From Longimicrobiales bacterium (lineage in GTDB: Bacteria > Gemmatimonadota > Gemmatimonadetes > Longimicrobiales > Gaopeijiaceae): DNA of 64,000 nucleotides. The notes below the pieces were generated by a model, which saw nothing but the letters and a program-made list of their open reading frames with translations, was not told the origin of the DNA and did not search any database. The DNA lies in NCBI GenBank assembly GCA_965248195.1, contig CBDFIQ010000002.1:800001-864000 (forward strand). The letters are read 5' to 3'. This document shows, one piece after another, positions 32,312 to 36,556 of this stretch; within the stretch, counting starts at the first letter, position 1, and the number at the start of each line of letters is the position of its first letter. Made by a program: the position numbers and the translations under genes.

Positions 32312-33122
32312 GGCCTGTTAACACTATCTGAGGGCTTCGACGATGAGCGCGAAGTGGATGAAGGCGGTAAACATCACGTCGAGCTTGTCAAAGCGGGAGA
32401 AGATTCTTCTGAAGCCTTTGAGTCGCCGAAATAACCGCTCTATTTCGTTACGACGGCGATACATGACTCGGTCATACTGCCACGGGTTAACACGGCCCTG
32501 CTTGGGTGGCACGACCGGCGTAAACCCCAGCTCCAACACCAATTGCCGTGTTTCGCCCCCCTCGTACGCCCGGTCCATGATCATGGACACTGTGGAATGT
32601 ACCGGCTTCAACGTGCGTAGCAGTTCCCGTCCTTCCGGCGCGTCGTGCTTGTGGCCTGGCGATAGCGAGAAGGTTATCGCGGTTCGAGCATCTGCGGCAA
32701 CCATATGAATCTTGGTGGTCCAGCCTCCACGCGACTTGCCGATGGCCTGCGGGCCGTTTTTTTTAGAGCGCCGGTGCCATCAGGGTGCACCTTGACGATG
32801 GTACTGTCGATCGACAGAGCTTGGATCTTGATCCGGATAATTTGCTCGTCTTGCAGGGCCGCAAAGACACGATCCAGCACACCTGCCCTGGCCCAGCGAT
32901 TCATTCGGGTGTAGATCGTATGCCAGTTACCGAAACGCGGAGGCAACCCCCGCCATTTGCAGCCGTGTTCGGCCACATACAGGATCGCGTTAAGCACTTC
33001 GAGATTGGAGATGCTCACATTGCCGCGCTGATGCGGAAAGCAAGCCTCTATCCGACGATATTGGGACTCTGTGATTTTCATAGCCCCAATATACTACAAA
33101 TTGCCCTTAGTGTTAACAGACC
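32312..33122 (-). mobile_element. IS5-family insertion sequence with two-ORF transposase (33081-32674 and a second frame ending at 32324)
   Basis: IRs GGCCTGTTAACACTA and TAGTGTTAACAGACC flanked by CTAG on both sides; GCKWRGLP, SIDST, DRAY, YRRRNEIER; A8 slippery run at 32757-32764. Confidence 0.92.
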
Positions 33123-33300
33123 CTAGTACCCAATCACGCAGAGACGTCTCCCAAGATCGGGCCTGCCATCCTCTGATTAGGGATGCGCCTAACGTCTCTG
33201 CGATTCTGATCTTATAAGGCGAAAGGCTGACCTCACTCGAGCGTGGCGTTACGCTGATCTTGCTCAAAGGCCTGCGGCACCCAACCCAAGGAGGCCAGCC

Positions 33301-34338
33301 ATGTTTGTCGCAGGAATCGATGCTCACGCAACGTATTCGGTGATCGCCATCGTGAGCAACACAGGTCAGCTCGTTGCCGGACCCATCCGGATCAAGAACA
33401 CGCAAGAGGATCGGCTCAATGATCTACTGGAGCAGTATCAGCCCCTGGAGGTGGTCGTCGAGACGAGTCCGGCCTGGCCGTGGCTCTTCGATCGACTCCA
33501 AGAGCGGGGGATCGACTTCGTGCTCGCTCACGCCAAGCGGCTCCGAGTCATCGCCGAGTCCAACTACAAGAGTGACGACATCGACGCCGAGTTGTTGGCG
33601 CGTATGCGACTCGCGGGCCTCATCCCCGAGGTCCATCCGAAGTGCGTCGAGCAGCGGGAGCAGGCGGTACTGCTACGCAACCGGGCACGACTCGTACGCG
33701 AACGCACACGCATGGTGAACCGCATCCATGCCCAGATCCACAACGTCGGGCTTCATCTGGAGCGTGGGCGTCTGCTCACCCAGGATGGACGCCAGTGGGT
33801 GCATGACGTGGCGTGGCCGCTGCTCGGAGCCGAGCGGCGTCTGTTCATCGACATGCAGTGGGAACTCATCGATCAACTCGTACCGATGATCAAAACCCTC
33901 GATCGCAGAGTGGAACACGTAGGCCGCAAGGTCCCCGCTGTAGCTCTGCTCGAGACCATCCCGGGCGTCGGTTCCTATCGGGCATTGCTCATCGCCACCG
34001 AGACGTTGCCCATCAAACGATTTCGTACACCGGGGCACCTGGTCAGCTACGCCGGTCTAGCCCCTCGCTCCTCACAGTCAGGGCTCCGGCCCATCCGCCA
34101 CGGATCGATCCCCGCCGGGGCCAACCGTTGGCTGAGGGGCACCTTCGTCCGGACCGTCGTGAGCCACGTCACTCACGCGCCCGACAGCTGGCTATCACAG
34201 TCGTACGAACTGATCAGGCAACGGCTCGGGTGGCAGGTCGCTCGGGTCGCTACCGCTCGGCGCCTCGCTCGTGCTGTGCACGCGATGCTCCGTACGGGTG
34301 AGGTCTGGCACGATGAACCCGTGGCTCGATCAAACTGA
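33301..34338 (+). CDS. IS110-family DEDD recombinase/transposase
   Basis: GIDAH, VVET, KSDDIDA, IPGVG, SYAGLAP, SQSG; SD AGGAGG. Confidence 0.95.
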   Translation: MFVAGIDAHATYSVIAIVSNTGQLVAGPIRIKNTQEDRLNDLLEQYQPLEVVVETSPAWPWLFDRLQERGIDFVLAHAKRLRVIAESNYKSDDIDAELLARMRLAGLIPEVHPKCVEQREQAVLLRNRARLVRERTRMVNRIHAQIHNVGLHLERGRLLTQDGRQWVHDVAWPLLGAERRLFIDMQWELIDQLVPMIKTLDRRVEHVGRKVPAVALLETIPGVGSYRALLIATETLPIKRFRTPGHLVSYAGLAPRSSQSGLRPIRHGSIPAGANRWLRGTFVRTVVSHVTHAPDSWLSQSYELIRQRLGWQVARVATARRLARAVHAMLRTGEVWHDEPVARSN

Positions 34339-34370
34339 GATGACACACGATGATGGACCGTACCACGACA

Positions 34371-34530
34371 GGGGTGAGCTCCGCGCGCAGCATGTCGCAC
34401 GACGACCCTCAGATTCTGATTGAGCCCCCCGCTCGCATAGCAGATCTTCGGACATCCCCGCGCTGGGATGAAACCTGAATAGATGCCTGAGTTCCTCGTG
34501 AGAGGAGACTCACCCAAGATCGGACGCGAC
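34371..34530 (+). ncRNA. Putative bridge RNA / seekRNA of the IS1111-type element; boundaries approximate
   Basis: Two stem-loops whose internal loops match the target flanks and the circle junction (see findings). Confidence 0.7.
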
Positions 34531-34805
34531 GTTGGTACTGAAGGATGAAAAACGGAAGATGATCACGCAGGCCTTGAGCTACAGACCAGTGGACCGAGCC
34601 ACCCCTCCGGGACCCCGGACGGGTAAGGGAGGGCTACGCCCTGTTGACTCCCTTCACCTTATAGATGTTGCGCGTCAATGTGCCGACCAGAAGCGAAGCG
34701 CGCGAACAGCTTTCGCTTTCAAGTCTTCTCGGTACCGCTTCTCCTGGGACCATCTGGTGCTTCCAGAGGGCCAATAGATCCGGCCCTCTTCGTCCATCTG
34801 ATCTA

Positions 34806-34925
34806 TCACGGATGGAAGGTAAGCCCAGTGCCTACCACCATGGCTACACCCAGAATTAGGTAGCCGACTACGACCATCGTGATGCCACCAAGAACCATTC
34901 CAGTCACCAGCTTCTTCGTGTCCAT
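34806..34925 (-). pseudogene. 39-aa hydrophobic ORF (MDTKKLVTGMVLVGITMVVVGYLILG...), probably a truncated membrane protein gene
   Basis: SD GGAGG and ATG at 34925; not in the supplied ORF track. Confidence 0.4.
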
Positions 34926-35102
34926 TCTGGCCTCCGTTCAGGAGTTGATCAGACTACGACTGCATGCCCCCCTGTCGAACGCTGCACCAAGTCTTCGACC
35001 CAGTTTGAAAGGAGGGTTCGGAACCCCCGCCCTCTCTGCCAACGTACGTGAGACACGGAGCACGCAAAGAATTAGAGTAGGGCGAAGGCAGAGAAAACGA
35101 AC

Positions 35103-35552
35103 ATGTTGGGACTGCGAGAGAGAATGGAAGAGAATGGTAGTGCCCCTGGAATCGGGGAGGCCAAGCGAAGCGCGGCAGCTCCTGCGGACCCGGAGGTAGT
35201 AGATAGGCCGCTACGCCGGCGGTTCAGTCCATCGTACAAGCTGCGGATCGTCGAAGAAGCGGACCGGTGCACCGAGCCCGGCGAGGTGGGTCAGCTCCTG
35301 CGGCGCGAGGGCCTGTACTCGTCGCACCTGACGACGTGGCGCAAGGCGGCGCATAGCGGGTCGCTGAAGGCCCTGTCGAAGAAACGCGGCCGCAAGCCGG
35401 AGCGGAATCCGCTGGATGAGAAGGTACGCAAGCTGGAGCGGCAAAACGCACGGCTCGAGAATGAGCTCAGGAAGGCACACCTGATCATCGACGTGCAGGG
35501 AAAAGTTGCGGGGCTGCTGGGGATAAGCCTCGACGACGGGACGAACTCTTGA
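35103..35552 (+). CDS. IS3-family OrfA (HTH plus coiled coil)
   Basis: RRRFSPSYKLRIV, LLRREGLYSSHLTTWR. Confidence 0.88.
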   Translation: MLGLRERMEENGSAPGIGEAKRSAAAPADPEVVDRPLRRRFSPSYKLRIVEEADRCTEPGEVGQLLRREGLYSSHLTTWRKAAHSGSLKALSKKRGRKPERNPLDEKVRKLERQNARLENELRKAHLIIDVQGKVAGLLGISLDDGTNS

Positions 35553-36556
35553 AGGCGGCCGATGAGCTGGCTAAGCACGTCGGTGTAAAACCGGCGTGCG
35601 CGGCTCTCGAGGTCTCCCGATCGACGTTCTACCGTCGTCGAGGCCCATCGACCGGGCAACGGCAGCCCCGCCCGACGCCCGCCCGGGCATTGAGCGAGAC
35701 GGAACGAGGCGAGGTCTTCGACACGCTGTGTTCGGAGCGGTTCGTGGACCGCTCACCCGCCGAGGTGGTGGCCACGCTGCTCGACGAAGAGGTCTACCTG
35801 TGCAGCGAACGCACGATGTATCGTGTTCTGGCCTCCGAGGTGCCGGTTCAGGAACGCCGGGCGCAGCGCACCCATCCCGAGTACAAGAAGCCCGAGTTGA
35901 TGGCCACGGCGCCGAACCAGGTGTGGTCCTGGGATATCACGCGGCTACTCGGGCCGAAGAAGTGGAGCTATTACTACCTCTACGTCATCATGGACATCTA
36001 CAGCCGCTACGTCGTGGGCTGGATGGTGGCGGACCGGGAGAACTCGGCCCTGGCCGGCCGGTTGATCCAGCAGAGCTGCCTGAAGCATGGCGTCCAGCCC
36101 CGGGTCCTGACCCTGCACTCGGATCGGGGAGCTCCAATGACGAGCCAATGCACCGCTCAACTTCTCGCTGACCTCGGCGTGACTCGCTCGTTGAGCCGGC
36201 CTCAGGTGTCGGATGACAACCCGTTTTCCGAGGCTCAGTTCAAAACCTTGAAGTACCATCCCTCGTTTCCCGGGCGGTTCGGGGATCAGGGCCAGGCCAA
36301 GACGTTGTGTCGATCGTTCTTCCGCTGGTACAATGCCGAGCACCGCCATGGCGGTATCTCGATGCTAACCCCCGAGCAGGTCCACTTCGGGAACGCCGAT
36401 CAGGTCATTGCCGGCAGGAAATCCGTGCTCCGCGAAGCATGGGCCGCTCATCCCGAACGCTTCGTCACAGGTGTGCCGAAGCCCAAACCGCTCCCGGAGG
36501 CCGTCTACATCAATCCTCCCATCCCTTCCCTCACCACACAGGATATTGCTCTCTAA
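35549..36556 (+). CDS. IS3-family OrfB DDE transposase
   Basis: WSWDIT, LHSDRG, NPFSEAQFKTLK; TTGA overlap with OrfA. Confidence 0.92.
   Translation: MKAADELAKHVGVKPACAALEVSRSTFYRRRGPSTGQRQPRPTPARALSETERGEVFDTLCSERFVDRSPAEVVATLLDEEVYLCSERTMYRVLASEVPVQERRAQRTHPEYKKPELMATAPNQVWSWDITRLLGPKKWSYYYLYVIMDIYSRYVVGWMVADRENSALAGRLIQQSCLKHGVQPRVLTLHSDRGAPMTSQCTAQLLADLGVTRSLSRPQVSDDNPFSEAQFKTLKYHPSFPGRFGDQGQAKTLCRSFFRWYNAEHRHGGISMLTPEQVHFGNADQVIAGRKSVLREAWAAHPERFVTGVPKPKPLPEAVYINPPIPSLTTQDIAL

Follow-up and report, generated by a model that had tools for sequence, protein, structure and literature searches.

A putative two-loop guide RNA in an IS1111-type element that appears to target integron attC sites of a Longimicrobiales bacterium

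An IS1111-type element and its recombinase

We analyzed a stretch of 64,000 nucleotides from a Longimicrobiales bacterium (GenBank assembly GCA_965248195.1, contig CBDFIQ010000002.1, positions 800,001 to 864,000), which we will call the window. (The genome is in two contigs, with 4.86 Mb in total.) On the forward strand of the window, at 33209..34665, lies an insertion sequence of the IS110 family. Its transposase (recombinase) gene, at 33301..34338, is preceded by just 92 non-coding nucleotides before the start codon (33209-33300), while 327 non-coding nucleotides follow the stop codon (34339-34665). This is very probably an intact IS1111-type element whose 3' non-coding region encodes the element's own two-loop guide RNA, known as a bridge RNA or seek RNA, at 34371..34523. 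As described below, the target-loop letters of this RNA change with the insertion site among homologous elements.

The transposase gene is a full-length open reading frame (ORF) of 345 amino acids. A Pfam scan of the protein found PF01548 at residues 4-146 (3.2e-16) and PF02371 at residues 215-298 (2.5e-15), and the protein scores 195.1 bits against the NCBIfam model NF033542 ("IS110 family RNA-guided transposase"), for which the cut-off is 140. Together with the layout of the element, which is that of IS1111, these hits support the family that had been proposed in a first-pass annotation of the window, made from the sequence alone. The DEDD and SG catalytic motifs named there are also present, as D7, E54, D92, D95, and S260-G261. 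A search of the PDB with the window's protein as a single sequence found nothing at E up to 0.01; a profile of 16 homologs matched the transposases of ISCro4 (9t56, 1.6e-14) and IS621 (8wt6, 2.1e-13). IS621 is reached from the window's protein only by a profile and not by the single sequence. In the profile alignment, the six residues align with positions 13, 62, 104, 107, and 243-244 of the IS621 chain. The chain index is offset by 2, so these positions correspond to D11, E60, D102, D105, and S241-G242, which form the composite active site of IS621 (Hiraizumi et al. 2024, PMC11208158). The catalytic residues are invariant in the 16 homologs, except for D7, which is kept in at least 90% of them. 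(The alignment does not include loci L033 and L051, where the matched frames hold stop codons.)

The homologs come from 40 loci with related proteins, which are referred to by numbers such as L019 or L037. Nearly all of these are labeled as Gemmatimonadota or Longimicrobiales, and one is labeled as Deltaproteobacteria. Protein identity in the loci that we used is 50-92%.

Copies of the element in attC sites

The genome has 14 insertions or remnants of this element, mostly in cassette arrays: 7 full copies, including the one in the window, 3 copies that are split by other DNA, and 4 fragments. Compared to the window's copy, the other six full copies have differences at 9-12 nt. Full copies within one array are spaced about 2.55 kb apart. 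The split copies (489583-492492, 499829-502918, and 1101002-1103427 of the genome's contig C1) are each broken by 0.9-1.6 kb of nested insertions.

Between the copies, homology extends from about 33187 to 34705 and so past the ends in the first-pass annotation, because the flanks form a repeat family of their own. The left flanks start with GCCTAAC and the full right flanks reach GTTAGR, but the letters of the flanks vary between copies, beginning at 33198 on the left and at 34668 on the right. From these sequence motifs, we identify the target as the left arm of an integron attC site. Specifically, inverse core sites are present in the flanks, along with the nested inverted repeats GCGATT/AATCGC and TGCTGC/GCAGCA; the flanks form arrays on contig C1; and a truncated integron integrase lies near one of the arrays. 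All seven full copies lie at one position and in one orientation within attC, and 9 right ends adjoin attC. The assignment to attC rests on the core motifs and the nested inverted repeats and not on the minimum free energy fold of the full attC top strand as DNA, which has no canonical R''/R' hairpin (z = -1.10).

The truncated integrase is an ORF of 180 amino acids, 5 kb from one array, that covers only positions 124-303 of TIGR02249 and scores 237 bits, as compared to a cut-off of 265. It is encoded on the - strand at 1112709-1113248 of contig C1. It adjoins a transposase gene of the IS256 family, and an aldo-keto reductase gene occupies the place where its N-terminus would be expected.

In the window, the left part of the attC remnant is at 33187..33206. 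It consists of an R''-type core site, GCCTAAC (33187-93), and then a flank that ends in ...GCGATTC; this flank is found with point variation beside all 7 full copies and in uninterrupted attC sites. The right part, TTGCGCGTCAATGTGCC...GCGCGCGA, is at 34668..34705. Its homology to the other flanks ends at 34705, and the R' half (...GTTAGA) is missing. So the window's copy occupies an isolated attC half-site, while the right flanks of other copies extend to GTTAGR.

The 14-mer GATTC-TG-CTGCGCG remains in the genome as 2 perfect copies and 10 copies with one mismatch. This appears to be a chromosomal integron outside the Proteobacteria that is heavily colonized by RNA-guided insertion sequences: most of the well-matched attC sites are occupied, the only perfect sites that are empty are those 2, and the integrase is truncated.

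Could the window's copy be an inert relic that is immobile now, with guide matches that record an ancestral target? The copy has a private patch of 9 substitutions within 43 bp (33873-33915), where the six other full copies and contigs from outside this genome share the alternative letters. Also, its core is followed by T, at a position where the guide RNA expects C (a G:T wobble) and where the six other full copies have C. The copy sits among other insertion sequences, and, as mentioned above, the integrase of this genome is truncated. Nevertheless, we consider a relic unlikely. The transposase ORF is full length, the patch causes just one change to the protein (L193I), and the RNA gene has exactly the same sequence in 5 of the 6 other full copies (the sixth differs at 34384). 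The seven copies have 99.2-99.4% identity, which argues that the family has been active in this genome recently. The patch looks like a short gene conversion from a diverged but functional relative.

The ends and the core of the element

The left junction reads GATTC-TG-ATCTTATAAGG and the right junction reads CCTTATAGA-TG-CTGCGCG. Both are identical in all 7 full copies, within attC flanks that vary. Only the dinucleotide TG is common to these junctions and to uninterrupted attC sites, so we define the element as 33209..34665 (1457 bp) plus one TG. The core dinucleotide is at 33207..33208 on the left, where it is the sole overlap of the empty site and both junctions. On the right it is at 34666..34667, as indicated by the copies, the uninterrupted attC sites, and a table of homologs' junctions. 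Each of the 7 full copies has 1457 bp between the TGs.

Contigs from elsewhere have the same breakpoint. Three public contigs from outside this genome follow the window up to 33208, break from it right after that position, and return to it at 34675 or 34677 after CTGCGCGA, CTTCGCGGCT, or CGACGCGGCT. Each of them represents an empty site.

The first-pass annotation had proposed a 3-bp core, GAT, with the target GCGATTCT-GAT-GTTGCGCG, the circle CCTTATA-GAT-CTTATAAGG, and the empty site GATTCTGATGCTGCG. GAT is indeed present at both junctions (33208-10 and 34664-66). With this core, GATTCTGAT (34412-20) and the reverse complement of CGCGCAGCAT (34384-93) would tile the target without a gap, and the spacer between TTGACT and TATAAG in the circle would be 19 nt instead of 22 nt. 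But several pieces of evidence make a GAT core very improbable. First, TCTGATG is not found in any of the 13 uninterrupted attC sites in the genome, which mostly read ...GCGATTC-TG-CTGCGCG... or near variants, so that TC-TG-CTG, or something close to it, takes its place. Second, the perfect or near-perfect 14-mers in the genome lack the AT. Third, the outside contigs join 33208 directly to CTGCGCG-type sequence. Fourth, homologs with other ends (GG-TG-AC) lack a 3-bp repeat but retain the TG. GAT is repeated because TG is preceded by the element's terminal GA at one junction and followed by its initial AT at the other (...GA-TG-AT...).

With TG as the core, the proposed target and the proposed circle junction, ATAGATCTTATA, are each off, and for the junction a refuting condition that the annotation itself had named applies. 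The junction that we compute is ATAGA-TG-ATCTTATA, and the predicted circle would contain ...TTATAGA-TG-ATCTTATAA...; no circle was observed with either core. The motifs that the annotation had used are where it had placed them: besides the two GATs, CGCGCAGCAT, and GATTCTGAT, these are ATAGAT (34479-84), AAGATC (34516-21), and TTGACT (34644-49).

Inside the ends are sub-terminal inverted repeats of 14 bp, with 2 mismatches: TATAAGGCGAAAGG at 33213..33226 pairs with CCCTTCACCTTATA at 34650..34663. (In locus L037, the sub-terminal inverted repeat is 11 bp and perfect.) For IS1111 elements, these repeats are reported as 11-13 bp (PMC11187229) or 7-17 bp (PMC11208160). The bases outside of the repeats number 4 on the left and 2 on the right, or 8 with the 2-bp core, whose assignment is a convention. 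In comparison, IS1111 elements, including those in attC sites, are reported to have terminal extensions of 7 (or 6) bp at the left end and 3 bp at the right end, for a total of 9-10 (PMC11187229).

The fold of the RNA

The candidate RNA gene (34371..34523) is 153 nt long, with a target loop at 34371-34430 and a donor loop at about 34441-34523. We tested the fold by running RNAalifold on sixteen 3' regions. In the first loop, RNAalifold finds GGGG/CCCC and GCUC/GAGC stems around an inner GUCG/CGAC hairpin. The second domain is closed by GAUC/GAUC and contains a variable hairpin, a single-stranded stretch, and a UGAGUC/GACUCG hairpin. Thus the two-loop RNA, along with the stems and the second hairpin that had been named from the window's sequence, is recovered from 16 homologs, with compensatory changes. 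The consensus fold has 29 pairs, with 97.2% of the cells paired, and 9 of the pairs changed on both sides (26 such cells). None of 500 shuffles scored as high, and slid controls were 31-50% paired. (Helices 1 and 4 are invariant and hence are uninformative about covariation.) The length of the RNA's core is 146-165 nt across the homologs. This is close to the "long seekRNA" of ISEc11, which is about 150 nt (PMC11187229, section 8).

We built a covariance model, R1, from 17 sequences. In this genome, R1 has 10 full matches and 1 cut match. Across the related loci, there are 36 matches in 35 of the 40 (17 of the 36 are training rows); in the remaining 5 loci, nothing but 5' fragments of the gene is present. 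R1 had no match in a sample of 150 further genomes of the phylum, which were searched with strict filters and with only 19 candidates scored per genome. A scan of 32500-35500 against Rfam, with E up to 1, found no match either. Either Rfam has no family for this RNA, or the RNA is too far from the families there.

The target guides change with the insertion site

The target loop has two putative guide strands, both of which had been proposed in the first-pass annotation. The right target guide, CGCGCAGCA (34384..34392), is the complement of the top strand TG+CTGCGCG. As the flank in the window is TG+TTGCGCG, there is one G:T wobble. The left target guide (34412..34420) reads GATTC+TG (34412-18) and then AT (34419-20), which matches the first two bases of the element.

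Within the window, GATTCTGAT at 34412-20 is the same as 33202-10, with 2 matches in the window as compared to 0.51 expected. For CGCGCAGCA, 29 of 100 shuffles gave at least 2 matches. The window's own matches are not beyond chance, and it is the comparison with homologs that makes the case.

We located both junctions in 22 elements: the window's element and those in 21 of the 40 related loci. (The other 19 loci lack an end, are fragmentary, or are rearranged.) TG is at both junctions in 19 of the 22 elements, and the right end is always 16 nt after TTGNNN. Some of the homologs have nearly identical ends but occupy unrelated sequences that are not attC sites, and the letters of the loop change with the site.

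We then compared the guides to the flanks, using one element for each of 14 target classes, with the guides anchored on the conserved stems. The left guide (the 3' strand of the loop) matches its own left flank at an average of 4.93 of 7 positions, while it matches those of other classes at 2.36 of 7. The right guide (the reverse complement of the 5' strand of the loop) matches its own right flank at 5.86 of 7 positions and others at 2.51 of 7. For each guide, none of 100,000 permutations gave a match this high. For both guides together, the sum over the 14 classes is 151, while the permutations have a mean of 74.1, and again none of 100,000 was as high. An alignment-free test, which used the longest match in the whole non-coding region, gave 0 of 20,000. 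The targets of the window, L023, and L027 classes resemble one another, which makes the test harder to pass and not easier. Covariation of the guides with the insertion sites, which had been suggested as a check on the window's element, is thus borne out across the 14 classes.

The clearest single example of retargeting is a shift of register by 3 bp on the same attC arm. The elements in L035 and L037, at TTCTGC-TG-CGCGACCA, lie 3 bp further along the arm than the window type, and each of their two guides has a corresponding shift.

Alternatively, the protein itself might select the site, either by recognizing a folded attC hairpin in the manner of integron integrases or by reading the inverted repeats, with the RNA-like matches as by-products. 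This strikes us as scarcely credible: the usual target is an imperfect palindrome with the nested repeats GCGATT/AATCGC and TGCTGC/GCAGCA, and the long sub-terminal repeats of IS1111 elements are possibly read by the protein (PMC11187229), but the half-site in the window is unable to form an attC hairpin, and homologs with near-identical ends lie in unrelated non-attC sites with loop letters that track the site. The predicted fold of the full attC top strand, which lacks the canonical hairpin, may point the same way. Insertion at the window's half-site would fit recognition of a short duplex sequence and not of a folded attC.

Beyond the core, the two bases that follow in the 3' target strand (AT or AC) are the first two bases of the element in 17 of the 22 elements; the exceptions are L019-L022 and L024. 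The second of these handshake-like bases, at 34420, is T in this genome's copies (where the element begins with AT), and it is C in L019-L022, L024, and outside contigs.

The three elements without TG at both junctions have TG on the left. On the right, L032 has CG, and L038 and L039 have AG. In all three, the right target guide reads CG. These elements form two classes (L032, and L038 with L039), with a donor-like T in the left core and a different base in the right one. They may preserve a trace of the order of strand exchange and of the way in which core mismatches are resolved in IS1111-type elements. The left flank of L038 is the reverse complement of the right flank of L039, so either the site is palindromic or the copies recombined.

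In L046 (2535-2974), past the right end and TG, the flank is the rest of another copy's RNA gene, starting from just after the TG of the left guide. A second, partial RNA is found at 2823-2974 (95 bits by R1). This suggests recombination into the guide-encoding DNA itself, at a pseudo-target that matches by half.

The donor loop and a possible junction promoter

The putative left donor guide is at 34479..34486 and reads ATAGA+TG, followed by a C, which is also the base that opens the consensus right target flank. In the RNA, AUAGA-UG equals the right end of the element plus the core. Among homologs, UG is preceded by A, G, or C in keeping with the final base of the right end, with the exception of L044. 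L036 and L038 each have 1 mismatch further in. The donor guide that had been proposed from ATAGAT is therefore supported in part: it tracks the last base of the right end, apart from L044 and the mismatches in L036 and L038.

The other proposed donor guide is AAGATC, which matches the left end of the window's element. The putative feature is AAGATCG, at 34516..34522. It would be either a right donor guide, complementary to TG+ATCTT if a G:T wobble is allowed, or one side (the 3' strand) of a closing helix with 34442-45. RNAalifold pairs the GATC within it with the upstream GATC (34442-45), and in L038 the neighboring bases pair as well, as GATCATG/CATGATC. AAGATC could be a short right donor guide, part of the closing helix, or both at once. 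In IS621, too, the reading extends only about 2 bp past the core (PMC11208160).

TTGACT (34644..34649) resembles a -35 element and is 16 nt from the right end. The first-pass annotation had suggested that it could form a promoter once the ends are joined in a circle. In 20 of the 22 elements, the TTGACN at that distance matches TTGACA at 5 or more of 6 positions. Junction promoters have a precedent in ISEc11 and IS621 (PMC11187229, section 8; PMC11208160), and by analogy with these elements, a junction promoter is plausible here. A simple scan of the linear element found 0 sigma-70-like promoter sites and 0 intrinsic terminators. Directly before TTGACN, at 34629-34643, is a GC-rich hairpin, AGGGC-TAC-GCCCT, which by eye recurs in homologs with changed letters.

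A proposed mechanism

The mechanism that we propose builds on several features that we observed: the family membership of the protein, the boundaries of the element, the TG core, the conserved fold of the RNA, and the covariation of the target guides and, in part, of the left donor guide. A DEDD/Ser recombinase would be guided by a bridge (seek) RNA of about 153 nt that is encoded 3' of its gene, at 34371-34523. Between them, the two target-guide strands would define a site of about 14 bp in the left arm of attC, GATTC-TG-CTGCGCG. In the second loop, AUAGA-UG, by matching the right end and the core, would hold the circular donor junction (...TTATAGA-TG-ATCTTATAA...), and recombination at TG would then insert the circle in one orientation. 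In particular, we infer from IS621, ISEc11, and ISKpn4 that the RNA is made, that it binds the protein, and that it directs strand exchange via a circular intermediate.

Several observations weigh against this reading or parts of it. First, the joint of the circle was not seen in 4 runs; all of these were assembled contigs, which lose rare forms. Second, the element is covered by contigs of two RNA libraries, into which DNA might have been carried over, so these contigs are not evidence of transcription; nor can assembled contigs reveal the ends or the strand of an RNA. Third, the fold of 34365-34545 as a single sequence is no better than that of shuffled sequences (z = -0.38). Fourth, we delimited the 14 target classes by eye, and because of their shared descent, the permutations make them look more independent than they are. 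Fifth, the right guide of L045 matches its right flank at 0 of 7 positions. (The reverse complement of this guide resembles the left flank instead, which has a short tandem repeat, TTCCGTG.) Sixth, the GATC within AAGATC is invariant in all 16 homologs, even where the left end is ACC and not ATC. Finally, in the computed TG junction, the sole strong -10-like hexamer (TATAAG or TATAAA, 5 of 6 matches) is 22 nt downstream of TTGACN, while the usual spacer is 16-18 nt. At 19 nt is TCTTAT or CCTTAT, which has 3-4 of 6 matches and lacks the A at position 2. So for the suggested junction promoter, the -35-like sequence is conserved but the spacing is unsupportive.

Comparison to known elements

The window's element is most readily compared to the IS1111-attC group (ISKpn4, ISPst6, ISPa25, and ISPa21; Siddiquee et al. 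2024, PMC11187229). Like them, it has a short 5' end, a long 3' non-coding region, and sub-terminal inverted repeats, and it lies in one orientation and at one position in gene-cassette attC sites. Like the IS1111 seekRNAs, its putative guide RNA is encoded downstream of the transposase gene, and the reported long form is of similar length (about 150 nt; PMC11187229). The order of the guides is also that of IS1111 seekRNAs, where the complement of the top strand is 5' of the complement of the bottom strand (PMC11187229, section 9), and is the reverse of the order in IS621.

The transposases of ISKpn4, ISPst6, and ISPa25 are 46-86% identical to each other (PMC11187229, section 9). The window's transposase is at most 34% identical to plasmid-borne relatives, which is the identity of the best of 516 matching plasmid records. 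Presumably, ISKpn4, ISPst6, and ISPa25 are included in the plasmid collection that we searched. Judging by identity to plasmid records alone, the transposase may belong to a lineage that is separate from ISKpn4 and ISPst6.

IS621 is also a DEDD and Ser recombinase with a target of about 14 bp, and its RNA has two loops, each of which reads the left bottom strand and the right top strand, with an overlap on the core dinucleotide (Durrant et al. 2024, PMC11208160; PMC11208158). The short extra matches to the partner DNA beside the window's guides are like the handshake guides of IS621 (PMC11208158). Unlike IS621, the window's element has its RNA at the 3' end instead of the 5' end, its core is TG instead of CT, and its sub-terminal repeats are long. 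As in IS1111 elements of the ISPa11/ISPpu9 type (PMC11187229), a repeated palindromic target in the host would be recognized via a 3' guide RNA, but the target is an arm of attC and not a repetitive extragenic palindromic (REP) sequence.

The mechanism has been known since 2024 and is not altered by the window's element, which is a well-supported new example of it rather than a new principle. In the library of papers that we searched, we found no description of such an attC-targeting clade of IS110 elements with bridge RNAs in Gemmatimonadota. We tentatively propose, with somewhat less than even confidence, that these elements form a TG-core clade of IS1111, so far almost only in Gemmatimonadota, whose targeting of attC is independent of that of ISKpn4, ISPst6, and ISPa25, and which has been naturally retargeted at least 14 times via the two guide strands alone. 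The computed series, with near-constant ends and scaffold, an invariant G at the second position of the core, and 14 readable targets, would be an example of natural reprogramming of a bridge/seek RNA. It could be raw material for working out how guides are read by IS1111-type recombinases, on which there is less work than on IS621.

Neighboring insertion sequences

The attC half-site in the window lies inside a cluster of insertion sequences, as there are transposase-like ORFs on either side of it. To the left, on the - strand at 32324-33130, are two overlapping ORFs (126 and 135 amino acids) that by eye look like an IS5/IS427-type transposase. This unit ends 57 bp from the attC remnant, and another 13 places in the genome carry its terminal 27-31 nt (33100-33130). 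To the right, on the + strand at 35103-36556, are two overlapping ORFs (149 and 335 amino acids) that by eye resemble orfA and orfB of an IS3-type element.

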